This document shows positions 28,211 through 64,000 of a stretch of 64,000 nt of DNA, piece by piece. The translations under genes were made by a program, and so were the position numbers. Source of the stretch: Microthyrium microscopicum. Its lineage: Eukaryota. The notes under the pieces are model-generated. The model did not search any database and was not told the DNA's origin. It saw nothing but the letters and a program-made list of their open reading frames with translations. Location of the stretch: the NCBI GenBank assembly GCA_010405405.1, contig MU004234.1, forward strand, positions 1,763,275 to 1,827,274, read 5' to 3'. The first letter of the stretch is position 1. Each line of letters starts with the position of its first letter.

Positions 28211-29929
28211 CTTTGCCAGTGGAAGGAGATACTTTTTTCGAGTCTCTTACAGGAACTAGTTTTGATGAGATCTTGAGAATTCGTGCTACTGAGAATGGCG
28301 TGTAGGTCATATATGCATGAGAACAACTCGTTCCTCTTAAAAGTTATGATGTTAGAAAGCTCCACTGAGAAAAGCTCTCTTGATTGGTAAGGCAAGCTTC
28401 TCTCGGAAGACCTGCAGTCCGTTCCGAGTTGGGATTAAATCGACAGCTCGTAAGCAACAGTGAAGACGGAGTTTAATAATTCAACCTAATCATTTCGAAC
28501 TTGATATCACGGGAACTAACTTCGTAAAAGCTGTTTATGAGTCTTTATCCTGCAATATAGCAGTAGATTTCGCCTATAATCAAATATACAGAGAGCTAGT
28601 GGTTGCAGCAAGCAGTCAAAAATGGGTCCAATCAAAGAGAACCAGAGAAAGCCTGCTATATATTTGTTGCTGGTAGAGAATTCAATCTTTTTGGTGTGCC
28701 ATCATATTCTAAGGCTATTTGCTTTCAGATAATAATAATGAAAATTAACCTCACTCTTTTAAAGCTGCCTACCCTATCGTCCTCCAATTTGACCCTTTGG
28801 AATAGGTCGAATCCACGCCACAGAAAGGTTCATCACAATAGCAATGACTCCCAAAATCCAGATAGATTTTCCATAGTTCGTTACATTATAGCGAAAAATG
28901 ATAGCTCCAATGACACCACCAAACTATATCGCATGTCAGTCCACCAACTCCGATAACTCTTTTGAGGGGCTTTAAAAACTTACGTTGCCTACTGCGCCGA
29001 CAAAACCGGACACAATACCATTGGCCTGTGGATGGACGTGAGGAACCAGCGCAAAGTTGGCGCCGTTGCTAGCGTCCATGAAGAATGCGAGGCCAGCGAC
29101 AAGACCAATCATGGTGTGTTGGTTATGTGAATTGGCGAGGCCGATGGCAAGCATAAAGACACCCATGGTGACACCGAGGAAGTGGATCCATATTTTCTTG
29201 GCCCAGAGGTTGCCTTTGGTATATTTGTAGATGATGTCGCTGATAATTCCACCTGTTTGTTGTTAGCAAGTTTATAGATCAAGAAGGGCGAGTGGTTAGA
29301 ACGTACCAAGAGGACGACCATAGACATTCAGAAGACCGAACATAGCGGCCCATCGGCCTGATGAGGTTTGGCCTAGTTTGGGGAAGTTCTTGAGGTAATA
29401 AGCTCCGAGAACGGAATTAATGGCAAGCTCAGATCCAAAGGAGTTGAAGTAGCATGCCATAAGCGCGACTGTTTGAGGAGAGATGAAGACTTTGAAGATT
29501 TCCTTTGCACTTGGTTTCTCGATGACTTCGTGGGCATACTCGGCATCGATCTCGGTGACTTCACCTTTTCCAAACTCTACGTCCTTGGTGATAGCTAGCT
29601 TGTCAACCTTCTCCGTCGAATCCGCTGGTGATGCGCCAGTGCTCTCGCCGTAGACAACGCTACTTTGGGGAACATGCCGGCCTTGCTCATGGATGACTCT
29701 CAAGTTGGCTTCAACAGCCTCATGTCGCTCCGACCACTTGCCAACAGGTGTGTCCGGGCATAAAACGACCATCAAAATAGCTGTGCCCACGATAATAGCA
29801 AACGGTACGAAAAAGGCTCGTCGCCAAGCATCGTGAGGTGAAAGCTTGTAGTGTCCAACAAAGTGGTCGAATATAGCAGGCATGATAAAGTAAGTAATAC
29901 CTCCGCCAGAGTTCCCAAAACCACCCGTC

Positions 29930-30143
29930 TATGACGCGTAATAGCGGCTAACCTATTCATATTAAAGAATACCAAAACCAAATCCTACAACCCCTAAATC
30001 TTAACCATAATTCTAATTTAGCAACGTATTTCTCTATTTATAATAATTTTAAGACCTATTCTAAACTCCCCTTAATAAGGGCTATCTTTAAAAGATATTT
30101 TTAAGAAGATTTATTTTTAGTTACGTAGTACTATAAAATATCT
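29930..30143 (+). repeat. Left terminal inverted repeat (214 bp)
   Basis: tatgacgcgtaatagcggctaacctattcatattaaagaataccaaaaccaaatcctacaacccctaaatc...tagtactataaaatatct matches the reverse complement of 40940-41153, differing mainly by transitions. Confidence 0.95.
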
Positions 30144-33100
30144 TTAAAAGCAAAAAGGTTACTAATTATTAGTAAGATAGTATCCTTATATAATACTATA
30201 GCTTACATAGAAGGATATAATAAGCTATATATAGATTTTAGTATAGTTATAAGAATATATTATAAGTAAAGATATTAGTTCGTAAAGAAGCTTACTAAAT
30301 TTAGTAAAGGAATATTCTTTAAAAGGACTATACTTACAATATCTTTCCTAAAATAGCTTTAATAAATAAAATAACTCTATATAAGGGTTTTAATTAGAGT
30401 AAATACTATAGAGCTCCTTCCTTAAAAGGATAAAAGCAAGATTATAAATTTATAACTATAGTAAAGTTTAATAAAGCTTAATAATAGTAGTTCCTTACTA
30501 AATTAGCTTATAAGTAAGCCTTAGCTATAATATCCCTTTTATAGTATTATTCCTTTTATAGATTCTTAGGTTATTCCTTTATATATTATCTCTTTAGATT
30601 AAGTATTAAGTCTTAGTAGTAAGGAAAATATAATTCTTTACTAAATAATATTATTCTAGTATGTTATCTTTTTTACTTATAACTACTTTACTAACTTTTA
30701 GTAAATCTAAGTTGCTAAAAACTTCTATCTCTTTAGCTATAATGTCTTCTAATGCTTTTCTACTACTAATTTATATTCTTAAAAGTAATTTCTAGCTTTT
30801 AATATAATTATATAAGCTTTAAGACATTAACTTAAAGTATTTTAGACTTTTCTATTTATATTATATAAAGTAAAGTTACGTTCTAGTAAGCCTATATCCC
30901 TTAGCTTATATACTAAATTATTATATATACTATTTAGCTTACTAATTAGTAGAACTATTAATACTAAAAGTATAAGTATTCTTTATAAATACTAATTATC
31001 TTATAAAATGTATCTATACTTAAATATTTAAGGAGCTAGCTTACTATTATAGAATACTATACTTATAAAAATATAAAAAAAGTAAGAAAATAGTATAAAA
31101 TTAGCGCTAAGATAGTTAGTACTACTATATAATAATCTTATAGAGCTAAATTATATATAAGTTTATCTTTTCTTATTAAATTAAGTATAACTAATATAAT
31201 TAAGTAATAAAATTATAGTAAAGAAGGTTTAGTAAAGTAAGATTTTTTAGTATTAAGTAAAAGAGAGACTATAACTCTAATTTAGCTATTATATCTAAGT
31301 AACGCTAAGCTAGTTTATATAGTAAGTAGTATATATACCTAAGTCTTATTAAGTTTCTTTATAGCTATATTAAGAACTAAGTAAATAAAGGAATAATATT
31401 TTTTTAGCTATTTTATAAAAGAAGAAAAAAAAATATTATTTATAATTATCTAAAAAATTTTATATAATTTAAAATTATATAGAATTTATAGTAATTATTT
31501 AAGCTTATACTATATAGTAGTTTTATACCTACGTAGTCTTATTATAATAATTTAGTAGTAAATATTACTTTAGGAATAACATTCTACTACTATAAAGTAA
31601 ACCTTCTTAGCTAAAAAGCTTTCTTTATTCTTAATTCTATACTTTCTAGTATAGTATACTTCTATATATATAAAATTAATTATAAAGCCTATTATACTAT
31701 TCCTTTCTAAAGACTACTTAAGAGAATACGTATAGTAAAATACTTTATAATAAAATACTTAGTATTTTACTTATAACGCATACTCTATAGATAACCTATT
31801 AAAATATATTAAGGTATTTATCCTTTATAAAAAGATACCTTATATAAAGAATTAAGATATTATTTTACTTATTATATAAGGAATTAAGATATTATTTTAC
31901 TTATTATATATATTTATTTTAGTAAAATAAAAAAAATAACTTATAGTTACTTTTTAAAGTACTATTTAATAATTACTTAGCTTTAAAGTAGCTAAAATTA
32001 GTAAAGATTACTAGTCTAACCTATCTCTATAACCTAGTCTAGTTTTCTAAATATATAAATATTAATTAGCTAGAATAGCTATAAAGCTTTTCTATTACTA
32101 AGTAGTATTATTTAATACTATATATTACTTAGGTAAGTAGAGCTTTCTATAATAAAGCTTATTAAGTAGTATATTTATACTAATACTTAGTAAAATTACT
32201 ATAAAGGTATCTTAATAAATCTTAATTAATATTAAGACCCTTTTAAGGTAATAATATTATAATAATCTTTATAACTATTTATACTTTAGTATTTATTATT
32301 AAAGATATCTTATTATACTTTATTAGTTACTCTTCTTTAATACGCTTTCTAAAGAAGATTAAAATAGTAAAGTATTTTTTATATTAATTTTTTTCTTTTA
32401 AAAAAAAGTCTTAATATCTTTAATATTAATACGTTCTATATTAATATATTATATTACGCTAAGTTAATCTATAATAATATAAGTAATTTTTAACTATTAA
32501 TTAATTAATATTTTAGTTATACTAAATACTATAACTACTTACTACCTAGAGATACTATATATAAAATATAAATAATATTACTACCCTTTATTAGTTATAG
32601 CCTACTATAGACTATTATCTATAATAGGCTTATTAATAATAACTAATTACCTCCTTATTTAAAATTTTTATCTTATAGATAGGCTTACTAGTTATAATAA
32701 AGTAATTCTAGTATACCTTTTAAGTCTAATCTTGTTTTTCCTTTACCTATTTTACTAATAATACTTTCCTAAGGCTATAATTCTATATAACCTATTATAC
32801 TTATATAGTAGTTATACTCTAGTCTAAAGTATAGTAATTAGGTTATTCTATATATTAAAGGAGCTTACATTTTATAATATAAAGGAAAGTTAGTTAAAAA
32901 CTAGCATATTATTTAAATACTATTTAAACTAAATACTAGTAAATTAGTAATTAGAAAGAAGATTACCTAAAAACTAAAGCTAACTACTATAATTTTCTAC
33001 TATAATTTTTATTTAAACTAGGCTTTCTAAAGACTTTCTAATATTATTATAGCCTTATTATTATTATATATAGAGATAATTCTATATACTACCCTATATC

Positions 33101-34899
33101 CTTAAGAAGTATAAGTACTATATTAAGAATAATATAAATAGTATAAGTAGGTTATAAGATTATTAACCTATATAAACTATAAGCTCTTAATTTTACTAAG
33201 AGTATTCCTATTTATAAAAAGTAATCCTACCTTAATCTAGTATTAATAAGTATATTTAATACGTTAGCCCTAATATATAATAGAGATTATACTTTTTACT
33301 TTAGTATAAAGTATATATCTTTTCTAAGAAGGTTAAGTTTATTAGGTAAGGACTCTAAGTAGCCTTATTAAAGTAATTTAACTATATTATTTATTAGCTA
33401 GTAGTTATACTTTAGATATACTTAATTTTTCTTTAAATAAAAATCTTAATATATATTATTAATCTAAAGTAGTAAATATTATTATTAAAAGAATATAGAT
33501 ACAAAAGCCTTTAAAAAAATAGAGAAACTTTATTACTTAATATATAATTAGTAGTATATTATAAGAAAAGTAAGAATATACTTTCTATTAATATATACTA
33601 AATAATATAAATAGATATTAATAAATATTATTATTAATTTATTAATATATAAAGGCAAGCTAGTTAACTACTTCTAAATATCTTTATTTAAGTAGCGTTC
33701 TTCTTAAGTTAAAAAGTATTAGTCTCTAGTAGATAGAAGTAGTAACTATAACATATATCTAAATACTAAATAATTAAGTAGTAAAAAAGTAGCTTAGAGT
33801 TAGCTAGTATTTAAAAATATATTACTAGCTATAGTAGTTACTAACTAGTTATTATACTTATTTATAAAGGAATATTATAAAATCTAAGTAGTTAAACTTT
33901 TAACTTATAAGGCTTATATATCTATCTACCTTATTACCTAGTAATAATTAACAACTTTAAGAATAAATTAAAGGTTTATTTAAGATATCTAGAAGTATAG
34001 AATAATAGGCTTATATTTTATATATTATAATTAATAAAAATAAAAATATAAAAAGTATATTATAAGCTATCCTTTGCTAAATTTAAGCCTATAATATATA
34101 CTTTAGATAAGTCCTAAATTTACTCTATTATTTACTAATTTACTTTAAGATAGTAAAGATTACTTTTAGTATTTCTATTTATTTTAGTAGTTATTTTTTA
34201 ATATATTTACTTTTATTATTATTACTACGCTTAGGATAATAAAGTAAGTATACTACTTTATTTACTCTAAGTACTTATTATATATTTAGTTTTTTTATCT
34301 TTTTAAAAAGTCTTCTATCTATAAGAATAGTATTATATTAATAAGTTAAAGCTAATTATAAACTTAGGTATATATTATAAGTATTAATTAAAGTATAGCT
34401 AGTAGTACTTCTTTTTAAAAAGATAGTTATATCTAATATAATAGTATATCTTTATAAAGAACTTTATTATATATATATTAATAAAGTACTAAATCCCTAC
34501 CTACTATATTATTAATTAAGGTAATACTTTATATAGAAAAAATATATATTAGTAATAAAATAACTAATAAGTAAGAATTTATTTACTTCCTCCTACTATT
34601 AAAAAGAATACTAACTTAATATTAGACTAATAAAAATCCTAATTTAGGTAAATATTAGCTCCTCTAGAGCTATATTAGACTCTAATTATTTTCTTAGTTT
34701 ACCTAAGAAATAGTTAAAGTCTAATATTAAAAGATAAAGACTTAAAAATACTAAGAGCAGTATATATAAGTTAAATTTAACTCTCTTTTAGTATAGTATA
34801 CCTTTTAGTAGTATATTATCTAAAATAAAAAATAGATTAAAATTATAAGTTAATATAGGTATAACTTTCTCTAAATCTTACTCTATAGTTAAAGTTACT

Positions 34900-35775
34900 A
34901 CTTTATAAGATATTCTAATATAGAAATATTTAGCTAAAAAGTCCTTAAAATAAATAAAGCTTATATATTCTTAGCTACTCTTTTAGTTTACTAAGAGGTA
35001 GCTAAAGATTTATAAGCTTTATTTTACCCTATATATTATCTTAATAATATTTACTTTAAGAGTTATAGATTTAATTAAGTCCTTAATACTAATAACTAAA
35101 TATAAATTAATATAATATAATATTAAATTAAAGAATCTTACTTAGCGCTCTTTTATAAGGACCTTTAGCGCTATATAGATAGTAAAAAGAAGTTAAATAT
35201 TTTTAAGGTACGTTTAAAAATAGAGAAGATAAAGATATATATAGATCATAATAGTAATATAATAGGCTTATTAGTTAAGTTTAGCAACTTAAATCTTCTA
35301 AAAAGTAAGGATATATTAATATTATTAATATGCTTTTAAGGTAGACTATAGAGATTATATAAGTAAGTAAGAAGAATTCTTAAAAACATAAATAAGGCTA
35401 AGGTAAGCTTTATTTAGATAAATAGTACTAAATAGAGAAAATATTACTAGCCTATTTATATTTTAAATAATACTAAAAAAATTAATATATCTTTAAAAGC
35501 TTTAAAAGAGATAAATAAAGTAAAGATTAAAAAAGAATAAGAAAAGAATAAGTAATTAGTTTAAGAGGTTAACTTTAATAAAGGCTACTCTCTTTATAAA
35601 TATAATAGTAAGAGGTTATTAAAGCGCTATTATAAATTTAATAATAAGGATATAGATAACTATATTATATATAAAGAAAAAAATAAAGTTACTCCTAATT
35701 AAAAAGTCTTAGAAGAATATAGTCTAAATATTAAAGAGCCTACTACCTTTACTCTTAAATATCTAGTAGCCTAAT
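34900..35775 (+). pseudogene. RIP-degraded internal ORF of the TIR element, unknown product (boundaries approximate)
   Basis: One frame reads protein-like for about 200 codons (..KVRLKIEKIKIYIDHNSNIIGLLVKFSNL..CF*GRL*RLYK..EVNFNKGYSLYKYNSKRLLKRYY..) with only TAA/TAG stops. No family recognised. Confidence 0.35.
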
Positions 35776-37149
35776 AATTAACTTTATTAATCCTCCTTAA
35801 GTTATTTCCTACGAACTAATATTATATCTATCTTAAACAAGACTATAACTCCTCTATAAACTAGTAGCCTAAGAAAGTCTATTAAAATTAGAGTTAAAGC
35901 TTAATAACTATTATTATATATCCTAATAAGTAGCTAATAATATTAAATAGAAATATAACTAATCTTTTATAAGAATATATTAATACTTAACTAATAACTT
36001 CTTTAGCCTCTAAATTTATAATTTAGTACTACTTTTAATTAATTTAATTTTTAGTTAGTAGTTCTAGTTCTAGTAATATTTATAATAATATTATATAAAT
36101 TCCTTAAGCTTATTTTTTAACTATTTTATCTTTATATAGTAGTTTTCTATACTATATTTTATAACTTCTACTTAATAAATTATATTAATTATTATATTTA
36201 CTAACGTTTATTTAGGTTTAACCTATAAGTTAATAAACTACTTAAGAATTCTAAGAGCATTAGTTTAGTAGAATAAAGAAGGAGCATAATAAGTTAATAA
36301 GCTAGTTACTTATTATTTTATAGCATACACGTAGTCTTATATAAGGATATATTATTAGATTAGTTAGCCCTATTTTAGTAAAGGCTAACGCCCTTACTAA
36401 GATTTAGTCTTATTTAAGTTTAAGGTTTATATATAAATATATACTAGTAATTAAGGCTTAAAGTATAAAGTTAATATTTTATAGCTAAAATTTAAGAAAC
36501 TAAAATTCTTTATTATAATTTATTTATAAAGAGTAGCGTATAAGTTAGTAAATAAAGATATAAATAGAGTATAGTATAAACTAGCTAAATAGACGATTAT
36601 ATAATAAATACTTTAATATAACGTTACTACTAGTAAGGTACTAAGGTACTCTAAGTAAGCTAAGATATCTACTATCTACTTTCTTACTTAAGCCTCTAAG
36701 CCTATTACTATATAGATCTATACTCTTAATATACTACTTAAAAGGCTTAATAACTATTTAGAATAAATTAATAAGAAAGTAAGAGCTTTATTACTTATTA
36801 AGAGTCTTAGTTATTAATAGGAATACTTACTATAGATGCTTATAGTCTTTCTTATTAAATAATAGTTCTTATATTAGTATTACCTATTACGCTAATAAGA
36901 TATAACTACCTATTATAGATAGCTTAAGCAAGTAATTAGTTATTTATAGAGATATCTAAAGCTTAATAGTAGGTATTAAACTAATAAATATAGAAGAATT
37001 ATCTATTAAAAAGTAAAACTAGCTAATATAAAACCTTTAAAGAGAAACTAAGTAGTTTAAGCCTACCTTCTAGCCTAATTATAGATAAACGTACTAATAA
37101 AATATATTAATTTACTAAGTACTAAGGCTTAGTCTAACTACTACTATAA

Positions 37150-38528
37150 GTAACTACTATATAAATTTATAAGCCTTTACTTAGGTCTAGCTATAATAAA
37201 GTTATATACTTATATAGTAGTTTTAGTAGCTTTTTTCTAGCTTTAGAAGCAATATTAGTATTAAACTACTCTTTACTAGCTTTAGAAGTAATACTAGTAT
37301 TATCTTTATTACCTTTATTATTATCCTTATCCTCTTTATTAGGCTTATAATCTAAGCCTTTATTATCTTTTATAACTAAGGTTATAAGTTTAGATAGAGG
37401 CTCCTCTTTATTATTATTTAAAAAGGGTAATTTCTATAGCTAGAGGTTCTTAAATTTAGAAGTATTAATTATAAGAAGCTTTAGATCCTCTATTTTAATA
37501 AACGAATCTTTCTTAATAACCTTTTTTATACTAGGTATTAGTATTAATTAACTTCTTAATATTAATAATATAGACTTAAGCTTAAGGGTTATAAATTATC
37601 TTTTTTTAAGAATAATATACTATTAATATATTTTATTCTTACTTATCTTCTTTAACTTTATTATAAAATATTCTATAAAGTTATTAGTAAATATTAACCT
37701 ATTAGTATTAAGGTTATTTAAGATAATTTAGAAGACTTAAGGCTATTTAGATATAGTAATATAAGAAGCTAGAATAAGCTTTTTTCTTAGCTTATAATAC
37801 TTTTCTAGTATAGCTTAAGAAAAGTATCTTACGACTTATTTTTTAACTAGGTTAGTAAAGTTCTAGATTAGTTAATAGGTAATAAATCTATAAGTTATCT
37901 TAAATACTAGTAGATAGTTAGTATATATTATTAGCAAAATATCCTACTTATAAAACTTTTATACCTTCTTTTTTAAAGACTTATCCCTATCTTTATTAAT
38001 TACCTAATCTATAATATATACCAAAATCTAAATATACTATTTAATATTTAATTAAGCTAGTTTTAGCTTATTAGTTAGATCTTTCTTAATACTTTTTATA
38101 TAGTAATATTATATACCTTTCTTTAGTTAGTCCTTTAAACTTAACGTAGCTACTTAATTAGCCTTTACTTAAGTTAATTCTTTACTTATTCTAGTATTAT
38201 ATCTTACCTAATTAGTATAAGCTTTAAAAGCCCTTACTAGAGAAGGTTAATAGCTATTTACTCTTATATTTCCTTCTATTTTAACTAAAGATTAATATAC
38301 TAGAGAATTATTAATCTTAATAATATTCTAAGGATTTATAATAATATAAGGCTTTAGTAATAGCTCTTTATACTATCTTAGATTAGCGTTAGAGTAGTAA
38401 AGCGTAGTAGATAGCTTATTACTTCTTATAAGTATTATTATATTAGAAGGTATATTTATTAGTTTTAAGTAAGTATAGTAGCATAGCTTAGTTTTCTATT
38501 TATAATTAATTATTATACCTAGAGGCAT
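37150..38528 (-). pseudogene. RIP-degraded second ORF of the IS3EU-like element (3' end approximate)
   Basis: ATG at 38528-38526 begins a long frame in tandem with the transposase, with a possible Cys cluster near the N-terminus, a charged middle and an acidic tail with a 42-bp internal repeat (about 37238-37300). Confidence 0.5.
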
Positions 38529-38884
38529 TTTTTTATAATAGCTAGTTAAAATTAAGCTTAGTTTATAAGTAAAGCTATGCTATTAACTATTAGGATCCTA
38601 TTTAATAATAGTAGCTATTAAATAAACGTATAAAGTTATTTTATTAAAATAGAATAATATTTATTAAGGTAGATAATAATAGTAAAGTAAAATAATAAAT
38701 ATTTCCTAAGTAGCAGGATTTATTATTAGAAATATTAATTATACTTTACCTTATAAAGTATTCTTAAAGAAGTAATTAAAGTATATTATATTAAAAATTT
38801 ATAGTTAAAGTATATTATATTAAAAATTTATATATCTTTACTAGTACTAATATAAGATTAAGGTATTCTTATTAAATTAGAACC

Positions 38885-40574
38885 TTAAAATTCTCCTAAT
38901 ATATTTAAATTATATTCTAGTTTAAAGGCTAGACTAGCTTCTCTACTTTCCTTAGCTAATAAGTATTTAGTACTAATCTTATTATATAATATCCTTATAG
39001 TTACTATAACTATAAAATAGTTTAGGTAATCTATAATAAACTACTTACTACTAATTAGAGTAGAGAATAAATTTAAGCGTAGCTTTACCTCTAACTCCTT
39101 ATATACCTCTAAGAATTATTATAGCTAGAGATAAATACGAATAAATAGCTTACTTAGTCTACCTTATTCTCTACTAAGAGGTTTATTAAGATTAAAATTA
39201 ATAAAAGTAAAGAAACTATTATATAGCTTATATATATTTACTAGTAAATAGGTATCTTTATTCTATCTACTTACTACTTACTTTCTTTTCTTTATTAGCT
39301 TTCTAATAATTAGTAACCCTTAATATTTAGTATTAGGAGCTATTATATAAAGGAAGTATAGTTTTCTATTTATAGCGTAAGGCTTTTTCTTTTTATTATT
39401 TATAATCTTATAAGAATTCTAGTTATTAATATATTTCTATATAACTATTTATAAGTATAGTATAAAGATTACTAGTATAGCTATATAGTCTAGATATTTA
39501 TCCTTTATATAGGCTTTCTAATCTTCTAGGGATTTAAAAAATAACTAAAGAATATAATATTAGTTATAAAGAGGCATAAAGGTAAGTACTATTTTCTTAT
39601 ACTTTCTACTTTATAAGCGCTCTACTACTTAGTTCCCTCTACTAACGTTTAATCTACTAGTTCTATATACTAGTTCTATAAAAATAATAATCTTTAAAAA
39701 GGATTACTTACTACTAATTCTCTATTATAAGCTTATAATACGCGTCTACTATTATAACTATTTTATTTCTATAATCTAACTAGATAAATTAAGGCTAAAT
39801 AAGGTTTAGCGTATTAAGTAAATTATTTAAATATTAGTAAAAAGTACTAATGCTTATAGTATTTAAGATACTAACATAATACTAAATAATATATTAAGAG
39901 AATATATTAATATACGTATATATTTTAATTTTAAAATTCTTAAGCTTATTATACTTATTAACTAACTAGACCTAGTTAAGCTCTTTAATAATATAGTCGC
40001 CTTATACTTAATAAGATTACTTCTAACGAGCTTATATTACTTTAAGATCTACTTCCTTCTAAATCTACTATAGAATTTATTATAAAACCTTATATCCTTA
40101 TTTACGTAGCCTATTAACTATTAAGTAGTATCTATAATTCTTAATACTAATATATAATCTATTAAGTTTAGCTTAAAATACTACTAAATCTTTAATATAT
40201 GCTACTTCTCTTTCTTCTTAGAATATATAAAGGTTTTACTATTTAAGTCTTAGTTTCTTATATAGTTACTAAAGTATCTATAGTTTTATATTATAGCTAT
40301 AGACCTAGAGAAGAATATAAAGCTCTTTTTTATTATAGTTCTAGAAATAGAATAGCTATTTAGTAAGTTTCTTAAGTTTTTTTATAATTTTAAGTAGTTT
40401 CTACATAATAATTTTCTATTCTTTAATCTTATAGTATAAGATTAAAAGAAATACTTTAGTATTATAATATTTTTTTAACTACTTAAGTAAATCTTAGTAT
40501 ATATACTCCTTATTATTAATAAGATATTTAATATTAAGGCAATACTCCTCTAAATTAATATAATAAGTAAGTAT
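38885..40574 (-). pseudogene. RIP-inactivated DDE transposase: N-terminal Clr5-like HTH plus IS3/integrase-like core, one intron (39602-39545)
   Basis: Raw translation GDYIIKELN*V*LVNKYNKLKNFKIKIYTYINIFS*YII*YYVSILN...FI*LDYRNKIVII...YRTSI*N**IKR**REL. Reversing RIP transitions gives approximately GDY.V.GPN.VWS.DGHDKL..FGIEIYA.ID.FSR.I.WC.VG.SN...IRSD.G.E...YGTS..NQRIERWW, followed by WNSHKI and GKPYFLY. Confidence 0.85.
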
Positions 40575-40939
40575 CCTAAAAGAATTATTAGTAAATAAAG
40601 TAGAAAGAAAAGAAAAGAAAGATAGAAAAAAGAAAATAGGTAGAAGTTAGAAAAGAAAAAGAACTTATAAATTATCTATAGATAAAAGAATTTCCTATAG
40701 ATAACTTATTAAAGAATATATAATATTACTACGTAGCGTCTTCTAATTTATTATTATATTAAAACTAATATTATATAGTATATACTTTACTAACTATATC
40801 TATATATAGTATTTACTTTTTCTAAGCTTAGAAACTTAATATATTCTTTATTACTCTCTACTATATACTAAGTCTACTCTTATTTATATAAAGATAGTAG
40901 TTACTTACTAAGAATATTATAATAGAGTATTAAGGTTTT

Positions 40940-41153
40940 AGATATTTTATAGTACTATATAACTAAAAATAAATCTTTTTAAAAATACTTTTTAAAGATA
41001 GCTCTTATTAAGGGAAGTCTAGAATAAGTCTTAAAATTATTATAAATAGGGGAATACATTGCTAAATTAGAATTATAATTAAGATTTAGGGGTTGTAGGA
41101 TTTGGTTTTAGTATTCTCTAATATGAATAGGTTGGCCGCTATTATGCGTTATA
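40940..41153 (-). repeat. Right terminal inverted repeat (214 bp)
   Basis: agatattttatagtacta...gatttaggggttgtaggatttggttttagtattctctaatatgaataggttggccgctattatgcgttata is the reverse complement of the left TIR. Confidence 0.95.
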
Positions 41154-41630
41154 CCCGTTAAGGCATTGGCGGTGCCTACGATGTTCTTGTCGAAGAATCC
41201 TGTGCTCCAGACCTGGCATGGGACGAAAGAACCGCCTAGAATACCTACGAAAAATCGAAGGATAATCAGCCCTTTGGCATCTTTGAGAGCGATCGCACAA
41301 GCAGTTGGAATGGCGCCCAAGACGAGCGTGCCGGCGAAGACATATCGTGGGCCGAATCTATCGCATAAAGGGCCACTAATGGCGCGGACGATAAGTGTTG
41401 CTGTGAGGGCGAGGATGTTGGAATTTGCGATTTCGTTCTGGCTGAGATGAAGATCCTTTTTGATCGTTTTGGTGATGAGAGGCGACCAAGCGTACCTGAT
41501 GATGGATTAGGGACTAGATAATTCAATATGTAGAGCTTTGAAGGCATACCACGACATGAAAGCTACCATAAAACCCCACCAGGAGAAGAAGAACACTCGT
41601 CCATAGACATTGAATGGATTTGATACTGGT

Positions 41631-41652
41631 ATCGATCTGGCATCGATCTGGC
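41631..41652 (-). repeat. Perfect 11-bp tandem duplication (ATCGATCTGGC x2) frameshifting exon 1 of the nitrate transporter
   Basis: Removing one copy converts [12 protein letters not shown]...LW* to [32 protein letters not shown]. Confidence 0.9.
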
Positions 41653-42094
41653 TTTCTTATTGACAGGATTCACTTCTGGAGCCTTGAAGAGAACGGTAGG
41701 ATCGAAGGGTAAGAAACCCATGGTTGAATTACTACTTTCGCAGCGTGTAGTCCGACGGATTGTAAGAAAGAGAAAAGACCAAAGTATGCAGCGTCTCAAA
41801 AGTTTGCCATATCAAAAGTACCTGGGGTTCCTTGTTGTAGTAGTCTTGTAGATCAATCAAGTGCAGTGACACTATATATATAGATCTCTAGTAAATTCCA
41901 TCCGGCCACACGCTACGTCTCCATATCTTGCCAGTCGATGAGATCGAATAATCATTGCTTCGAATCATTGAGGTGAATCTCCGGGAGAAGCACACATCTA
42001 GCCAAGTCTTCTCCGATAACATCAATGATCAGCTCAAGAAACATCCATATATCGAGGTTTTGGTGGGAGTTGGAATGTAGTTAGGAAAGAGATT

Positions 42095-42102
42095 CTCCGC
42101 GG
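42095..42102. promoter_or_regulatory. NirA/Nit4 nitrate-induction site CTCCGCGG with nearby GATA (AreA/Nit2) cores
   Basis: Exact match to the CTCCGHGG consensus about 375 bp upstream of the nitrate transporter ATG. GATA/TATC cores at about 41924, 42015, 42236 and 42303. Confidence 0.6.
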
Positions 42103-46937: not shown

Positions 46938-47385
46938 CGTGGCTACGCGAGCTGTATGCGGGATCTATGGAGCGCGAGGTAGAGTAGTGCGTTGGCAAAT
47001 GGTGGATGACATGGACGACAGAGAAGTGCCAATAATGACATACACGTCTAGTAAGGGTGACTGAAGTTATGTATAGGGTAAGAGAAGAAGCATAGTAGTA
47101 GGATGTTGTGAAGCTCAAGGCAGTAAGTGACAGGCGCTTTGAAGTCTCCAGGCACGATGAGGGATGAGGCTGAGTAAATCTTGGTCCGTGATCTCCACTT
47201 TTAAAGGATATAAACGGTGGCTTGGCCAGTCAAAGCTGGGGAGCAGCGTTAGGTAGGGGAGTATATATTGTGGCGTTATTATTGCTCTACATTTCCATGA
47301 TTTACGTTGGCCACTATTTCAATTCACTATCACTTATTTCTTGGATAACCTGGCAGTAATATGAATGATCTGGTATGGTTGTATC

Positions 47386-49063
47386 CATTTGCTATATGCA
47401 GAATTATTTTCGGAGGGCGCTTGGGCCTCGAATTCTCGCGCAGCACCCTTCACATCTTTAATATTTAATAAATAACTAAATACTATAATTTCTTACTAAC
47501 TATGTATCTATTTATTCTCTACTATAGATAGTCTTATTAAGCATCTTATTCTATATTATTTAATATATGCAAAATATTATCCTATACTAAAACTAAGTTA
47601 CTAAAACAAGACTTATTAGAATTACTAGATCTATAGCCTAATTAGCTCAACTAGAGTGTTTTCCTCCTAAAATTATAACTACTAAGTATAGCTTCTTATA
47701 AATCTATTACTTATTATATAGACCCTTATATCTAGGCTATAAGACAAACTTAGACTTAGGTATATTAGCCTAGTAGAAACCCTATTAGCCTAATTAAGTA
47801 TATACGCGCTAAAGCGTATCTTAAATATAGATAAACTATTTTATAGGTTACTAAATAAATTTACTATAGTCTAAAAACTATTAAGTACTAGAAATATAAT
47901 CTAGATATATATAGATTAATATAAAAGCTATAAGATAAGTTATATAGAGTACTACCTTAACTAACTATTAAAAATAAAGACGCTATATTATAATATTTAC
48001 TCTTATTTAATTAGCTCTTATAGAACAAAATAGTTTACTAGTTAGAAAAAGAGCGTAGAATTAATATAAATTAAAGTATAATATCTTATTTGCTAAAGAA
48101 AAGAGCTTAGAATAAGAAAGCCCTTATAAGAGTTTTAAATATATATAGTAAAGAACTATAAGTATTATATCTTTAAGATATAGTATAGTTTAATAATAAA
48201 GATTTAGTCTTCCTTAATAAGTTTATCTTTAAAGAATAAATAGGCTAAAAATATAGTACTTATATTCTAATTAGATTACCTTCTTGTTAAACTTAGAGTC
48301 TTAGATATAGAAAGACATAGGCTATTCTTATAACTATTACGCTATAGGGTTATCTTCCTTATACTAGTATATAAGAGAGTTATTATAAAGTAAAGAACTT
48401 CTACGATTAGATTAAAAACTAGCTTATTCTAGTACTATATAATTACTTTAAAACTTAAATACTAGTAGTAATCCTTAATAACGTATCTATCTATATAGAT
48501 TCTAATATTAAGTAATTATTAAAAGTAGCAAATTACGTAGTTTAATATCTATTACTATATTCTCTAAATTTTAATCCTATAGAACTAACGTTTAGTATCT
48601 TAAAGGCTTAGATTTAACGATATTAAATTACAAAGTAGCGAAGTGCTACATCTTTTAAGGACTTCTTAGAGCATGCTTTAGCTTATAGTAAATGTAATTG
48701 TTTTGTAATAGCTTAGTTTAGACATACTACAAATAGTATATATTATAAAAAAACTAATATATATACGTTCTTTACCTTTCTTATAGAGTATAAGCGATTA
48801 GCTGCTATAGAACTTTATTAGTAAAGTAAATAGCTATTATAGTATTAGACTAAAGTATCTTAAGCGTCTTAATTATTTATATATATATTATATATCTATA
48901 AGATCTAAATACTAAATTAAGTTATTATAGATTAAATTTTAGGTATATATAGAAACTAATAATAAGACTACTATTTACTAAATAGTATCCCTCTATCCTC
49001 CTATCCTTACTAACTATTCTATACTAGCTAGTAGTCCTTATCTATATATGCATATAGCAAATA
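47386..49063 (+). mobile_element. Tc1/IS630-like DNA transposon (about 1.7 kb), RIPed, with a DD34E transposase remnant at 47688-about 48820
   Basis: Reversing RIP gives LVFLDES...GYLPCTG...VVILDNASIH-(34 aa D to E)-YLPPYSPDFNPIELTFGILKAWI. Short inverted repeat ATTTGCTATATGCA (47387-47400) / TGCATATAGCAAAT (49049-49062). The TA TSD is clear only on the right. Confidence 0.8.
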
Positions 49064-50355
49064 TAAATAAAGACTACTAACTAGTACTTTCTAGGCGCTA
49101 TCTAATTTTATTTAAAAACGAGTTAAGATTCTATTATATATTGCTATTTATATAGTAGCTTTTAACTACTATACTAAAGTCCTAATAGAACTCTTTATCG
49201 TCTTAAATATAAGACTAGCAAGCTAAGGCCTTTACTCCTATATACTTTAACGATATATAGAGAATATAAGAATAAAGATATAGAAGTTAGAGTCCTATAT
49301 AGAGAATAGTATTTTTTAATATAGTAGAGACGTACACTAGTAAGGAGAGAATTCTAAGAATCTTATTACTACTTTTAGATAGTAGCAATCTAGTAGTAGT
49401 AGAGTCCTAGCTCTTTTAGTATTCCTTTTAGAATAGCAAGCTAGTAAAGCCTAACCTCTTATAATATTCCTTTAGAATAACGAACTAGCAGAGTCCTAGT
49501 AAATAAACTAAATAGATAGAGAAAATACATGCTAAATAGTAACTTAACCTAAATAAACTAAAGAAATTAAGGAAATATATACTAAATAGTAGCTTAACCT
49601 ATAATTTATAGAGATAATATAGAGATAGCACCCTATAAGGAATAAAGTTCTATAGCTCTAAGTCTTAAAGCTAAATTAAAGTTAATCTAGTAAGCTATAA
49701 GGTATAGAGTCCTAACTTCTTTAATAATATTATTAAGAAAATACACGCTAAAGGGTAGCTTAACCTAAATAAACTAGAGAAATTAAGGAAATATATACTA
49801 AAGAGCGGCTTAACCTATAGTTTATAGGTATAATATAGAGGTAGACTACTAAGAGAGTTAAAATCCTATTTAGATCCTAGTCGTTAATAAATTATAGTAG
49901 ATTGCTAAAGCTAGTAATATAATATTATAAAAAGAGACTTATTAATAGTATAGATACTAAAGAATAAGTTATCCTAAATAAAAAGATAATAGAATAGGAA
50001 TAGTAAACTAGTGCTAACCTAAGTAATAAAGTAATATATTAGTAAAGATAAGTATTAAATAAGAAAGATAAAGAAGTACTAGAGAATAGTAAGTAAAGAA
50101 TAAATTTTATACTCTTTTTATACTAAGCAATACTAAATTAGGATATATTTATTATAACTAGCCTCTATATCTATATTATATATTAAAAAGTAATTTATTA
50201 GTAATAGTAAAGCACTAGTATCTAAGAATAGACTTATATAACCTTAGTATTAAGACTAGAGTAAAGAACTTACTAATAGAAAGATAAATAGTAAAAGTAT
50301 ACTACTTAGTATTAAAGAAGAAAATAGTAAATACCTAATTTACTATAGCTAAAGT

Positions 50356-50365
50356 NNNNNNNNNN
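50356..50365. other. Assembly gap (10 N)
   Basis: Run of 10 N, with a 312-bp near-duplicate on either side (50044-50355 vs 50459-50770). Confidence 0.99.
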
Positions 50366-50458
50366 ACGTGCGATCCCACGGAGTGTCCGAGCTTGGACAC
50401 TACGGTACTTTTTGCATTAGTTGAGCCGTTTAGGTAGGGATCGCCCTGCGGCGTCACA
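50366..50458. mobile_element. Un-RIPed LTR-like terminus (...GCGTCACA) abutting the gap
   Basis: 93 bp of normal GC content with CpA/TpG intact inside fully RIPed DNA. It ends in CGTCACA, typical of an LTR end. Confidence 0.55.
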
Positions 50459-53400
50459 AAAGATAAGTATTAAATAAGGAAGATAGAGAAGTACTAAAGA
50501 ATAGTAAGTAAAGAATAGATTTTATATTCCTTTTATACTAAGTAATACTAGATTAGGATATATTTATTATAACTAGCCTCTATATCTATACTATATACTA
50601 ATAAGTAATTTATTAGTAGTAATAAAGTACTAATATCTAAGAATAGATTTATATAATCTTAATATTAAGACTAGAGTAAAGAACTTACTAATAGGAAGAT
50701 AAATAGTAAGAGTATACTACTTAGTATTAAAGAAGAGAATAGTAAATACCTAATTTACTATAGCTAAAGTTATATAGTATTTAGGTATTAAGGAAGAGAG
50801 GTTAAGAACTACTAATAATATTATATAAAGCTAGTATCTATACTAGCCTTAATATTAATAATATAATTTATTAATAATATAAGATAATATTACTAAGAAT
50901 ATAGATACTAAGAAGAGAACTATTAGCTACTTATAATATATAGTATTATTATATATATTAAATTAATAAGATATACTATACTAAGAGATAAAGTTACTAT
51001 ATAATTATAAATATAAAGTAAGTATAGCATATTAAGAATAGTTAGTAATAAGATTACATTTAGAAATAAAGTTTAATAATCGTAAAGCTTTAAATAATAG
51101 TAAAATATATAGGTAATTATAATATAAATAATAAGAGATAATTATTAGCTATCTATAAATATATCTTTATAAAGTTATAGCCTTAGTAGTTAAAGATATT
51201 AATATACTATATTAATCTAGATAATATATATTATAAGTATTTTTAAAGAAGATATTTAGCCCTTACTAAAATTTAAGAGTAGTATACTACTCTTTAGTTA
51301 TAATCAATATACTAATTTTTTATATATTTCTATTTAGCTTTACTATATATTAACTATGATATATATCTTATTTATATTTACTATCTATAGTTTATATAAA
51401 TACTCTAAATAACCCTATCTTTATCTTATTAAATAATATAAAATATTAAGTAAATAATAGCTTAGTATTAAACCTACTAAAAAATTAGGCTATATTATCT
51501 TACTATTTACTTTCTTAATATTATAAGACTTTATAATTTTACTATAAAACTATAAAATCTAAGAGACTATACTAAGTACTACCTTCTAGCTAATATTATA
51601 TATACTAGTATATAAATCCTAATTATATTACTACTTATCTATTATAATTAACCTAATAAGTTAATCTCTACTAATCTATTACTACTAATAATTACTATTA
51701 CTTACTAATTACTCTTATTAGTATATCTAAATATAATATTAATTCTTTCCTACTATAATTATAGTACATTATAATATTATATCTTTAAATCTTTATATTA
51801 TTAGCTATACTAGCAACTTTACTTTATCTATTTATTACGATCTATAATATCTTCTTTATTACTATCTTAACTATTATAGTTACCTTAATCTTATAGGCCT
51901 TACTACTATAATTAGGTATTAGGTTATACTAAAGGTACTAATATAGAGAATTTAATACTTTAGCCTACGTCTAATTATAAATAATAGTAATCCTTTAGTA
52001 GTAAGTTCTCTCTATTATATTCCTATTATAACTTTCTAAAACGTAGTAAGTAATAGTATTTATATGTTTTAATACTTATAAAGTCTTATCTATTCTTAGT
52101 TTTCTCTATTACTTTTATAAACTACTTTATATATAATATTTATTAAGAACTCTTTTATAATACTTTATATTTTACTTCTATACCCTTCTATATTATTAAC
52201 TACCCTAATACTTACTCTACTTACTCTATTTACTTTTTATAACCTTAAATTATCTTATTATAATTAATTTATAAGTTCTTAATCCTTAGTACGATTCTTT
52301 AAGTTTCTAAGCTTAACGCTACTAGTTAGCTCTTAATATAATCTTTAGCTTTAAAAGCTATAGTAACATCTCTAATACTAGTAATAGCTTAACTAGTATT
52401 TGCCCTCCTATCTTATACCTTAGTAGTGCTATTAGTAGTACTATAGGATTCTATTACTATAAGCCTAATAACTTATATATTATAATAATTAATCCTTCTA
52501 ATTCTATTATCTATTACTTACTTTATTAAATTATAATAAACTCTAACGTAAGTTAATATTTCTATTATCTTTATATATTACTAAGTTATAAATAGGATCT
52601 ATAGATTATTATTAGTATAGACTACCCTCTAGTTAATATATAGATTTAAGACCTACTACTAATTAATATTAGATACGCTATATATAAAATAATAATTACC
52701 TATAGCACCTAATTCTCTAAAGAGACGCTACTTAACTAGAACTCTTTTACTTCTCTAAATATATAAGAATTCTCTACTATAGTACTCTTCCTTTACTATA
52801 TTACTTAATTATATTATTATAGTACTTAGTACTTAGATTATCTTCCTATAAATAGTACTTAACTTTATCTAACGACTTATACTTATAATTATAACTAGCT
52901 AGATCTATATAGATATATAAGCTATCCTAACTACTAAAAAAGATTATACTCTAATTATATTCTTTATAGTTAACTTATAACCTACTTTCTTTATAATACT
53001 AATACTAATCCTTAAGTCCTTCTACCTCTTACTTTAGTATAATACCTACGTCTTATCCTCTTCTCTATAACTCTTTATAACCTTTATTAACTTCTATAAT
53101 ATAACTAAGCGTTCTAGGGCTTAAATATAAGAATCTAATGTTATTTAACCTTCTTACTTTATATAGAAGACTTCTTACTAGTAGTTTTAATTATTAAATA
53201 GTAGTAATAAGATTATAGTATTATTTAACATTTCTGCTTTATAAGAATAGTATCTTACGAATAGTTTCAGAATAAGGAACAATAGCAATAGAAATAGACT
53301 AGATATTAGTAGTTAATTATTTCTAAAATTATTATTTACTTAGTTTTATAGTTATAGACGAGATATTTAGGGGTCGTTTTTAATTACGACTAATACTAAA

Positions 53401-54085
53401 CTACTAATACTATAATAACTAATTTAATTTTCTAAATCTTTTCTACGCTAGTTAAAAGCGTTATTCTTAATAAGTAATAAAAGAAATAATCGTAAAATAT
53501 ATTATAAATACAAAATAATAGAGGCAAAGCAAAAGATAGGAAAATATATAATAATAGACATAACTTTAGTAAAATTCTAGTAAATTAATTACTTATAAAT
53601 TAATAAAGATAGGCTAGAGTTAGTAAAACTATAAATTATAACTACTAATGCTAATATACTAACTAATACTTACCTTTATTGTCTACTATGCTATTATATC
53701 CTTATAATCGCTAACTTAGCCTTAACGCTATTTATATTAATATAAAGATTAGCTATACCTCCTTTAGGGCGACCTTACTTAATCTATCTAACCTACTTTT
53801 TTATCTAGGCGTAAATTCTAATTAAGATTAAATTAATAACGTTATAATCCCTTACTAGATAATATATATAATTATTATTAATATAAGTACTAAACTTTAG
53901 GTTTAGTAAAGAAATATTTTCTTTATTAACTATATACTATAGCTATATAAAAGACTTACTAGCTATGTCTCTAGTTAGTATTATATACTAGACTATAAAG
54001 GTAAAGAAATCTTATTTATAATTTAGTATAAATATAGTATTAAACGTTATATTATTTATAGCTAGTAGGTCTAAAGGTAGCTCCT

Positions 54086-54307
54086 TGTAAGGAATCCTTA
54101 CAGGTTTGGTGTTATAGTATTTAGATATAGAGATCTAATCTTATAAATAAGATCTCTTTATCTCATTTAGGGTTAGTATATCTAAGGATTCTTTAGGCCC
54201 TATATCTTTATATCTATAGCTACATTCCTAGATCTCTTTTCTCTATACTTAGATCCTATAATACTAGCTATTTTCTACTTACTTATTACGCTTATTAGCT
54301 CCTTATA
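54086..54307 (+). repeat. 5' LTR (222 bp)
   Basis: TGTAAGGAATCCTTACAGG...ATTAGCTCCTTATA, a direct repeat of 61576-61797. Confidence 0.93.
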
Positions 54308-57300
54308 TAATTTAAGTACTTCTATATTAAATTTTACGCTTTACGCATATTTTGCGTATTATTAATAAATACGTAGAGGCGTTTAATAATTCTTATTAGA
54401 TTACTATAGTTATACTATAGATTTAACTAATTAGCATTTAGCAACACTATCCTTAATTAGGATTAGCGTTACTAAAGGTACTAGCAAATTTATAAATACT
54501 AACTAGAGCAATATAAATTTAGCATTATTTATTAGAATAAAGACTACTTAGAGGCCTAAGCTTTGCTCTATAATATTCTTCTTAAATCTATAGAAGCATT
54601 TATATTATTTCCTCTCTACTAACTATAAAATATATTTACCTTGTTCCTTATTAATTTATATTTATTAAATCTATTAAATTAGTTCTAATTTATTAAGAAA
54701 TACTATATTATTTAGTTACGTATTACTATAAGTAAGGTACTACTTATTCCTAATCTTAAACTAGTATTAAGTAACTCTTATATTGCCTATAAGCGTAATA
54801 GCGTTAATATTTAAAGCTATTTAGTTTTACCCTACCGTAGCAAAGATAGCTACTTTGCTAAGAAGCTAGTCGTTCTAAATATAGGAACTAATTAATAGTC
54901 TACTATTACATTAACGCTATAGTAAGAAAGTATCTTAATAATTAAATCTATTAAAAAGTTACCTCTATTACCTAAAGTAGCTTTAGATAATAAAGATAAA
55001 GAATTCCTTTATTAAAATACTTAAGTTAATATTAACATTTAATAACCTTATAAAATCATTACTAGACTATTAACTATAGTACTTATTACACTAGTAAGCA
55101 TAATAAAAGAGCTAAGATTAAAAGGTAAAGAAGTATTAACCTCTAGTACCATTATTAGTAATTTATTAGACAAAGATATATTAAAAGTAAGATTACCTAT
55201 TAATATTTACTATTAATTAGAATTACTAGTACGCAAAAAAGAACCTTATAACGTTCTTATATTATTTTTACCCTATCTACTCCTAGAACTAGTAGACCTT
55301 AATAGTAAAGTTATATTACTCACTAGTATAAAGCCTTTATTTATATAAGCCTTATATAGAGTTAGACTAGAGGTAAAAAAATAGATATTAATAGTTCTTT
55401 AGAATAATCCTAATAATTCTACTACTCTTTAGAAATATTATATATTAATATCTAATAGTAAGTATCTAAACTAATATATTAAGTTTATAGAAAAAGATTA
55501 ATTCTTTAAATAACTATATACTACGTTAATAATTAATTAAACTATAGTATTATATTACTAGTCTACTTAAAAACTTTAAAATTAGCTAGTAGAAGAACTT
55601 ATAGACGCTAATATAAAAGTAGGTTAACTAAGTAAATTAGTAAAAGTACTACAAAAAGAAGTAGCTACCTATTAGTAAATAATAATAGATCTTAAAGCAC
55701 TTACTAGCTAAATTTATTATAACTATAAGTTAGTACTAACTACTACTTATTTAAATAAATAAGTAGCTTTTACTAAATTAGTAAAGAAGCGCAATACTAA
55801 TCTACAATATTATAAGCTAGTTATTAACCTTTACTATTAGGTCTAAGAACTTAAGGATAGACTTTAAATAAATTTAAACTAAGCTTATATTAACCTAGAT
55901 AATTTAGAAAATAATATCTTCTTAGATTATTCTATACTATAAGTAACATATCTAGTAGTTTTATACTTATAGCTTTAAGCCTAAGGAATACACTATATCT
56001 TATTATTATTAGTAGCTAATAATACCTCTTTAGTAATACTTACAAAGTTTAAAGAACCTAGTAATTTTAAAAGTAAACCTACATACTATAAATAATAGAA
56101 GGAAAAAATATTAGATATACTTCTTAATAAGAATATATATTTATACGTCTCTACTAAAAAGAAAAAGATTAAGTTTATCTATATTTATTATATTAGCCCT
56201 ACTTATAGTATTATAGTTATATAGAAAAGTTATAAGTTAAAAGACCTTTATAGTACTATAAAAGAAATATAGATAGATCTAGATAGTTATTACTACTCTA
56301 AGAACGCTTTTAAAGATACTAAGGCATAGTTAAAGTTCTTAGATACTAAGATAAAAGATATAAAAGGTCTTTAAGCCTTTATTAACTACTTCTTAATAAA
56401 TTTAATAGATATAAAACTATCTAAGTATAAGAAGATTATTAAATTACAAAATCTTATTAACTATAAGTTTACAAATCTACTAGTAAGCTAATATTTTAGT
56501 AGTTTTATTATATTTTACGCTTAACTTTACCTAATTACATACTAAATTAATTATAAGCCTACTACTATAAATAATACCTCTTATAGCTATAATAATAATT
56601 AGTCTACTAATAAAGAAGCCTAAAATAATAAAACTAGTAACGTTAACTATCCTATAAACGTCTTTAATGCTTTAAAAATAGATAAACGTTATATCTATTA
56701 TAAGTAAAAGAGTTACTACTACTTTAATAAGACTACGCTATATAAAGATTAGGAACCCTTATTTAATAATAAGATTAAAACCTTAATTATACTTTTAGTA
56801 ATAATATTTATAAAAGTTTAAAAAGAATAGTAACCCTTTATAGAAAATATTACTAAGAATAATAATTATTAGTCTTTAAACTAGATACTTTTTTACTAAG
56901 CTATAAGAAAGAGCTAAATAAGATTAAAATATATAATAAAAGAAAGAAACATACCTTTAATACTAATACTAAGCGTATAAAGAAGATATTTTATTAATAT
57001 AATAAAGAGTAGTACTAAAATACTAAGAAAGCTAAAGAAACATTCTATTAGGCTAAAGAAGACTATAAAAATATTAAAGAGAAAATATAAGAAAAGACTA
57101 AGAAAATACTTAGCTACCTTTACTAGCATATTTAGTACCTTAAGTATAAAAATACTATTTATAAGAGATAAGTTTTACTAGTATACTTATACGCTATCTA
57201 TATTTTACTAGCCTTTATTATACTAATAGTATAGCTTTAAAATATTAAAAAAAAAGATTCTATTATTAGATTATAATAAACTATTATTAACTTAGTATTT

Positions 57301-61575: not shown

Positions 61576-61797
61576 TATAAGGAATCCTTACAAGTTTAGT
61601 ATTATAGTATTTAGATATAGAGATCTAATCTTATAGATAAGATCTCTTTATCCCGTTTAGGATTAGTATATCTAAAGATCTCTTAGGCCCTATATCTTTA
61701 TATCTATAGCTATATCCCTAGATCTCTTCTCTTCGTACTTAGATCCTACAATACTAGCTACTTTCTGCTCACCTGTCGCGCCCATTAGCTCCTTACA
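61576..61797 (+). repeat. 3' LTR (222 bp)
   Basis: TATAAGGAATCCTTACAAG...CCCATTAGCTCCTTACA followed by the TSD CTCCT. Confidence 0.93.
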
Positions 61798-63980: not shown

Positions 63981-64000
63981 TTTTAGTATTTAGTATAGCC

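Follow-up and report, generated by a model that had tools for sequence, protein, structure and literature searches.

The IS3EU superfamily of transposons is defined by TA..TA termini in all complete families and by a target-site duplication (TSD) that is usually 6 bp long (Kojima & Bao 2023, PMC10045372). A criterion quoted in PMC8232023 adds a second protein besides the transposase, and the fungal families are described as having TAYGG..CCRTA ends and terminal inverted repeats (TIRs) of >30 bp (PMC12730594). Styx/REP9 of Zymoseptoria is an active element of 7.9 kb with TIRs of 36-43 bp, a 6-bp TSD and four genes, two of which, REP9-1 and REP9-2, carry DUF3716 (PMC8232023, PMC10853768). IS3EU families that carry a TET/JBP gene have been described from rusts and from Tuber indicum (Kojima 2025, PMC12730594). 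The interpretation of fungal integrase-core proteins as IS3EU transposases is already in print (PMC8232023, PMC10853768, PMC12730594); IS3EU elements of fungi are thus known together with their cargo and their duplications of 6 bp, and the locus described here is no new kind of system. We analyzed a stretch of 64,000 nucleotides from contig MU004234.1 of Microthyrium microscopicum, hereafter the window, in which an AT-rich island with long inverted repeats interrupts a nitrate-transporter gene. In the reading that we favor, with a probability of about 0.85, the island is a dead cut-and-paste IS3EU copy of ~5 kb, altered by repeat-induced point mutation (RIP), which lies in an NNP gene of an ascomycete and holds a nested repeat.

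The island is sharply edged at 29930-41153, with a GC content of 0.17-0.22 inside and 0.41-0.49 on both sides (Table 1). The two arms of its TIR are 91% complementary over 214 nt and become 100% identical across the same length when the letters are collapsed to purines and pyrimidines. All mismatches between the arms are thus transitions, which points to a once-perfect TIR that was struck by RIP separately on each arm. The first three bases are TAT (29930-29932) and the last three ATA (41151-41153), which fits the TA..TA criterion of IS3EU. Directly outside them stand two 6-bp copies that agree at five of six bases, the deviant base being a C>T change before A, the preferred context of RIP. 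The usual thresholds for RIP are a TpA/ApT index >0.89 and a (CpA+TpG)/(ApC+GpT) index <1.03. The element has values of 1.62 and 0.07, the neighboring sequence at 1001-29929 values of 0.71 and 1.31; with both indices past the thresholds and TIR arms that differ by transitions alone, the element is a RIPed sequence. This RIP ends at the TIR ends, save for the one change that leaked into the right TSD copy. No further copy of the element was found within the 64-kb window by blastn, and a purine/pyrimidine-collapsed search of the window for other copies returned short matches only, which were taken as chance.

The host gene provides an independent view of the ends. The matches of the two flanks to Pfam MFS_1 meet at profile position 125, where the one of the right flank stops and the one of the left flank begins. 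The left flank has 882 homologs among NNP-family nitrate/nitrite transporters, with an identity of 63-67% for the best; the best-named ones belong to Microthyrium microscopicum and Tothia fuscella. Judged from the best-named relatives of this gene and of the transposase described below, the host is probably a dothideomycete. In all 13 full-length orthologs inspected, the motif ..GTAN(3 residues)GG[FW]GN.GGG.. is present once, and the window reads ..GTANALTG, then the element, then TGGFGNSGGG.., with the T-G codons doubled. The conserved gene is whole again, to the base, once the island and one of the 6-bp copies are taken out, so that the TSD is 6 bp long and the ends lie as given; the MFS_1 profile junction and the 13 orthologs are two independent lines of evidence for a duplication of exactly 6 bp. 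A reading made beforehand from the letters of the window alone (the sequence-only reading) had proposed 214-bp TIRs with TAT...ATA termini, a 6-bp TSD with one CpA>TpA change, and ends fixed by insertion into a conserved gene; all three held when the ends were re-read and set against the codons, the profile junction and the orthologs of the host gene. Contigs from four sequencing runs span both flank/TIR junctions (28900-30003 and 41080-42100); the runs come from one sample, possibly the source of the assembly, and their junction contigs argue only against a local misjoin. An empty-site allele or an independent strain was not found among these four runs. Since both halves of the host gene are still open and well conserved, the insertion is not ancient relative to gene decay.

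Table 1. Features of the element and of the interrupted gene (window coordinates).
Feature	Coordinates	Strand	Remarks
NNP nitrate/nitrite transporter gene, downstream part	29296..29928	-	open frame; MFS_1 profile positions 125-258
Left TSD copy	29924..29929		CCCGTC
Left TIR	29930..30143	+	214 nt, begins TATGACGCG
High-copy repeat, probably nested	30221..36443		contig depth step; boundaries approximate
Internal IS3EU part, candidate second gene	36444..39037	-	single-copy-like depth; strand guessed from relatives
Transposase exon 2	39038..39544	-	frame 1 counted from 41153; 169 codons, 12 stops; 3' end approximate
Intron	39545..39602	-	58 nt; GTATAA...ACTAAT...TTTAG
Transposase exon 1	39603..40574	-	frame 0; 324 codons, 42 stops as read
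Right TIR	40940..41153	-	214 nt; element finishes with complement of TATAACGCA
Right TSD copy	41154..41159		CCCGTT; final base = C>T at CpA
Nitrate-transporter gene, upstream part	41156..41506	-	open frame; MFS_1 profile positions 14-125

Toward its right end the element carries a transposase pseudogene (40574-39603 joined to 39544-39038) of ~493 codons, with 54 stops as read. The probable start codon is ATA at 40574-40572, i.e. an ATG altered at TpG. The sequence-only reading had recognized a catalytic core composed of WS.DGHDKL, IRSD.G.E and NQRIERWW after reversal of RIP, within an intron-containing open reading frame (ORF) at one end of the element, and both parts of this claim proved sound. 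Each of the three motifs is compatible with reversal of C>T and G>A changes at exactly one place, and the three places (39968-39942, 39785-39762 and 39662-39639) follow one another in the right order on the minus strand in a single frame. At the catalytic positions stand N for D (39959-39957), D (39776-39774) and K for E (39650-39648), i.e. two of three are changed; the D-D-E residues are spaced 61/42 in the window, as against 59/41 in the relative P0002.

Homology searches place the same region among integrase-type proteins. The translation of 40553-39054 with X at stops (P0001) was compared by phmmer with 1.84 billion representatives and matched 73 proteins at E<=1e-3; eight of these reached E<=1e-10, and the best E-value was 7.3e-17. 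Matches with a name come from Venturia inaequalis, Letrouitia and Aspergillus spectabilis and are annotated as "integrase core domain-containing" or as hypothetical. We also used a RIP-aware alignment, which accepts T as a former C and A as a former G, penalizes such reversals outside TpA and applies a score offset that makes random alignments negative. Eight homologs scored 209-273 in minus-strand frame 0, where shuffles over six frames reached 47-51 (standard deviation 3-9, highest 73). The alignment with P0015 covers 145 positions, of which 40 are identical as read and 59 more become so once RIP is reversed. For exon 2, seven of the eight homologs scored 65-92 in frame 1, compared with shuffle maxima of 54-73, and an exon of the un-RIPed relative L039 scored 133. 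The 58-nt intron of the window is real: across 39602-39545 the homology switches frame, from 0 to 1, and L039 has a canonical 60-nt intron (GTATGT..ACAG) at the corresponding protein position.

A side observation concerns six short database "proteins" (P0006, P0008, P0037, P0044, P0047 and P0056), which share exact five-residue words such as IKIYT and FYRTS with the RIPed translation. They appear to be genes that were predicted in other assemblies from RIP-mutated copies of the same transposase.

The relatives define the family to which the pseudogene belongs. A domain scan took in the 40 longer of the 73 matches: 39 of them contain the PF24764 rva_4 integrase core above the gathering cut-off, and 20 have PF14420 Clr5 at the N-terminus at E<=0.01, 15 of these above the curated cut-off. 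Their motifs follow the order WS[IV]DG[HY].K, RSD.G.E after ~60 residues and NQRIE.WW after another ~39 residues; the W..D...K motif is present in 56 of the 73 matches and NQRIE in 35, many of the matches being fragments. The Clr5-like helix-turn-helix (HTH) that had been read in the window itself is well established on the relatives and weakly traceable in the window, at about 40559-40410, where there is no Pfam Clr5 match. For five of 14 Clr5 segments from relatives, the best alignment falls at 40571-40407, in frame with the rest and immediately upstream of it; they score 36-50, where the null has means of 33-35 and maxima of 40-50. Three phmmer alignments extend into the Clr5 domain of the matched protein.

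The predicted AlphaFold model of the relative P0015 (pLDDT, a per-residue confidence score, of 78) has two three-helix bundles, a core of beta-beta-beta-alpha-beta-alpha-beta topology and a helical C-terminus. Its best Foldseek matches in the PDB are TnsB, IstA and the RSV, PFV and HIV integrases, with E-values of 3e-5 to 1e-3. The sequence-only reading had suggested a structure search; these matches would fit rival integrase groups as well.

Metagenome contigs supplied un-RIPed relatives with their surroundings. A profile of 18 relatives drew out 443 related metagenome stretches, and 80 loci were kept. The search for inverted repeats on both sides of the gene covered 39 of these 80, mostly on the longer contigs, and 11 clean cases were examined. 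These TIR-bounded relatives are 2.7-7.5 kb long and have TIRs of about 33 to 370 nt. Ten of the 11 start with TA, and seven show TACGG on at least one arm. Both flanks are available for ten, and three of them (L037, L041 and L066) are framed by perfect 6-bp direct repeats. L066:5599-13045 and L041:261-7746 are un-RIPed elements of 7.4-7.5 kb with TACGG ends and perfect 6-bp duplications, and both have a Tet_JBP ORF, at an E-value of 4e-11 in L066 and more weakly, below the cut-off, in L041; 18 of the first 19 terminal bases of L041 equal those of IS3EU-1_TuIn (Table S1 of PMC12730594). L004:36-5050 contains a DUF3716 ORF at 3953-4456 on the minus strand, and one of its TIR arms starts with TC. 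In seven relatives (L004, L012, L029, L039, L059, L064 and L069) the transposase lies near an end and reads inward, as in the window. In several relatives the transposase is followed, in its own orientation, by a second ORF; these second ORFs show no homology among one another. The presence of such proteins in TIR-bounded elements bears out the suggestion that the fungal Clr5/integrase-core proteins are transposases of mobile elements, an idea that had already been published.

In one further locus, L033, long inverted arrays of a degenerate repeat flank the transposase relative (5346-7560 and 11457-12237). These arrays gave rise to spurious high scores in the RIP-aware scans.

The size of the element required closer attention. 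It had been given as 11.2 kb, and one TSD does bracket the whole island, but IS3EU proper is probably shorter. Contigs of the four runs were aligned with 28900-42100 and their depth was summed, which does not give a copy number; contig joints that had no more than 21-23 letters to one side were disregarded as repeat artifacts. In run X1, the summed depth was ~108 in the flanks, 150-190 in the two TIR bins (1.4-1.8 times the flank), 40-250 over the transposase part (36397-40806) and 900-4200 over 30223-36396. The block at 30221-36443 thus reaches 10-40 times the depth of its surroundings, falling in X1 from about 3000-4000 at the left to about 1000 at the right; the same step is seen in the other three runs, most weakly in X4. 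Many contig variants of this block differ from the window by transitions, and the contigs of other copies part from the window sequence shortly before 30221 and shortly after 36443. An IS3EU-borne block would leave the TIRs at least as abundant as itself, so the excess of the block over the TIRs argues for a separate repeat family, and the block is probably a nested insertion of a different and far more abundant repeat. Without it, the IS3EU element would probably measure ~5.0 kb, which is inside the range of the relatives, and would consist of a TIR, the transposase ~580 bp from the right end and reading inward, an interior of ~2.6 kb and the second TIR.

An alternative view takes the whole 11.2 kb as one cargo-carrying IS3EU, whose abundant block is IS3EU-borne and common to many relatives or derivatives. 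It would account naturally for the single 6-bp TSD around the whole island and for RIP that is uniform from TIR to TIR, and fungal IS3EU elements with multiple cargo are known, namely Styx/REP9 with its four genes and the TET/JBP carriers of 7.4-7.5 kb. However, derivatives that keep the block should also keep the TIRs, whose depth is only about 1.4-1.8 times that of the flanks; at the two borders of the block, 30221 and 36443, contigs that stem from other copies diverge from the window; and no ORF from the 80 related loci matches the block. We consider this single-unit origin unlikely and retain the nested arrangement. As to the nature of the block, no homolog was found among the ORFs of related loci, in motif scans or in a word-based protein search. 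RIP-aware scans for reverse-transcriptase, integrase, endonuclease, Tc1, hAT and CCHC motifs gave counts at or near the shuffle expectation, and the word-based search with X-read 34950-36149 on the plus strand returned nothing at E<=0.01 among proteins of 220-700 residues.

The interior between the block and the transposase was searched for a second gene. Stop density and periodicity-based strand calls are uninformative in RIPed DNA, whereas the 3-periodicity of purines and pyrimidines is unaffected by RIP. Modest peaks of this periodicity occur at 34950-36150, within the block, and at 36750-38500, within the interior (up to 5.5), compared with ~2 in the transposase region and 8-14 in host exons. 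The word-based search with X-read 36954-38753 on the minus strand gave nothing at E<=0.01 among proteins of 330-1050 residues. RIP-aware alignment of 380 ORFs of >=150 aa from the related loci with the element recovered the transposase match only, and alignment of 992 ORFs of >=100 aa with 36444-39037 revealed no homolog; the remaining top scores, up to 83, belong to low-complexity ORFs, and the shuffle null itself reached 80. Nor did any second ORF of the relatives, those with Tet_JBP and DUF3716 included, score above the null in the window. A conserved second IS3EU protein is not evident in this lineage, as judged from these comparisons.

The assignment to IS3EU is supported by the TA..TA ends, the 6-bp TSD, the TIRs and a D-D-E transposase whose relatives carry the IS3EU motif blocks, in agreement with the class that had been proposed from the letters alone. 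In Data S3 of PMC10045372, the Repbase IS3EU cores read VWHIDGYDKLKP / ..CIDGFSR.. / R.D.GTEN / ..NQRIE.WW, and the Ginger2 rows contain ..SD.GREF.. and ..SQSQGS[IV]ER.N... The blocks of our relatives, W[SH][IV]DG.DKL, [RT][ST]D.G.E and NQRIE.WW, correspond to the IS3EU rows and differ from the Ginger2 rows. Membership of another integrase-type group (Ginger1, Ginger2/TDD, Polinton/Maverick or IS481EU) must be weighed against this, since all of them share the RNase-H-fold integrase core and the fold search matches retroviral integrases and TnsB alike. Apart from the motif blocks, TA..TA ends with a 6-bp TSD are the signature of IS3EU/GingerRoot, while IS481EU has duplications of ~4, 15 or 25 bp (PMC10045372). 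The N-termini of the relatives are HTH bundles with no zinc-finger match, unlike the HHCC of the Ginger/retroviral type, and no polymerase, protease or capsid gene was detected, although detection is weak in RIPed DNA. Another integrase group is therefore very improbable. That the island is no transposon at all, with inverted repeats and 6-mers arising by chance or by an assembly artifact at the edge of an AT-rich isochore, is hardly credible, even if the sole reads stem from what may be the assembly's own source sample, because a 214-nt repeat varies by transitions alone, removal of the island with one 6-mer restores a conserved gene exactly, a transposase pseudogene adjoins one end and contigs of four runs cross both junctions.

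Several observations weigh against the interpretation as an IS3EU copy of ~5 kb with a nested repeat. The ends of the window element are TATGA and TATAA and would fit TAYGG only if RIP had changed both arms. Pfam found no family, PF24764 rva_4 included, in the six window frames read with X at stops; this is the expected outcome of RIP, but the family assignment consequently leans on the relatives and on a custom alignment scheme. Membership in IS3EU is deduced from motifs, ends and TSD. The tabulation of TSDs in un-RIPed relatives, which had been put forward as a check, favors 6 bp only in part. Besides the three relatives with perfect 6-bp repeats, two of the ten with flanks, L059 and L069, have clean TAC.. 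ends and 5-bp flanking repeats (GTTAG and GATTG), so the length of the duplication may vary within the lineage. No flanking repeat was seen in the remaining five (L002, L004, L029, L039 and L064), which may reflect chimeric metagenome assembly of a repeat or another cause, and L064 begins with TG instead of TA. The evidence for nesting is summed contig depth from one sample, and no convincing ends or TSD of the nested block were found in the AT-rich sequence. The reads contain no other copy of the IS3EU part at >=95% identity, although RIP implies one, and no second gene was found in the window element by the homology searches.

These data suggest the following history. The transposase of ~490 residues would have begun with two HTH bundles, of which the first is Clr5-like, and continued with a D-D-E core of RNase-H fold and a helical C-terminal part. 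By analogy with DDE transposases and IS3EU, the HTH domains would bind the long TIRs, and the core, as in the rest of the family, would cut at the TA..TA ends and join them to a target staggered by 6 bp, whose gap repair would yield the 6-bp duplication. The element inserted into the coding exon of the NNP gene, splitting it between two conserved glycine-rich codons. RIP, probably after the insertion, changed nearly every CpA and TpG and so produced the stops, the lost start and the two altered catalytic residues. RIP targets duplicated DNA, so a second copy of the element must have existed. The abundant 6.2-kb repeat would have landed inside the element.

The name of the Clr5 domain comes from a fission-yeast silencing factor, and the domain is annotated on many "hypothetical" proteins of Pezizomycotina. 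A full-text literature search, judged partly from titles and abstracts, found no link of the Clr5 protein domain to IS3EU or to transposases, and the connection appears to be unreported in the searchable literature. Its occurrence on IS3EU transposases suggests a possible domestication link to the Clr5-domain proteins of the host. A bolder proposal would be that Clr5 is the native end-binding HTH of fungal IS3EU transposases, that free-standing Clr5 proteins of the host are domesticated N-termini and that 36444-39037 encodes an undescribed IS3EU accessory protein; as a whole this proposal is tentative and on balance doubtful.

What the locus offers is an IS3EU insertion from a filamentous ascomycete whose limits are known to the base; a conserved gene of the host sets both its ends and its TSD. 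It also documents that one copy of a nitrate-transporter gene was lost. Hypothetical proteins with an integrase core and Clr5, which are common in Pezizomycotina annotations, belong on this evidence to IS3EU. RIPed copies of this kind are invisible to ORF- and Pfam-based pipelines, so that repeat annotation stands to gain from their recognition, and even a RIP-flattened transposase can still be recovered by reading through its stops.

Two further parts of the window are AT-rich: 1-1000 and 47300-64000 have a GC content of 0.18-0.26, a TpA/ApT index of 1.55-1.65 and a (CpA+TpG)/(ApC+GpT) index of 0.16-0.17, values similar to those of the element. They have no sequence in common with the element and are probably other RIPed repeats, which would make the window a mosaic of genes and repeats.

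When compared with IS3EU as described in PMC10045372, the element shows the same TA..TA ends, 6-bp TSD and TIRs; the DDE blocks common to the family, W.[IV]D..[DH]KL, CID.[FY]SR, [RT].D.G.E and NQRIE.[WL]W, are shared as well, and the relatives have an HTH-type N-terminus without an HHCC zinc finger. The window copy differs in being destroyed by RIP and in its 214-nt TIRs, as against the ">30 bp" given for fungal families, and the N-terminal HTH of its fungal relatives is recognized by Pfam as Clr5. By its published description, Styx/REP9 is likewise a dothideomycete IS3EU with TIRs, a 6-bp TSD, an rve-type transposase and RIP-affected copies, and the relative L004 carries DUF3716 as REP9-1 and REP9-2 do; the window copy, in contrast, is dead, has much longer TIRs and shows no detectable DUF3716. 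With the TET/JBP-carrying families (PMC12730594) it shares the transposase family, L041 and L066 being the relatives that combine a Tet_JBP ORF with TACGG ends and 6-bp duplications, but no remnant of a TET/JBP or alpha-kinase gene is detectable in the window element. The bacterial IS3/IS481 transposases, TnsB/IstA and the retroviral integrases appear, from the predicted model, to share the RNase-H-fold D-D-E core, and they differ from the present group by an identity of only 10-15% and by other terminal domains, the window transposase being a eukaryotic gene with an intron.

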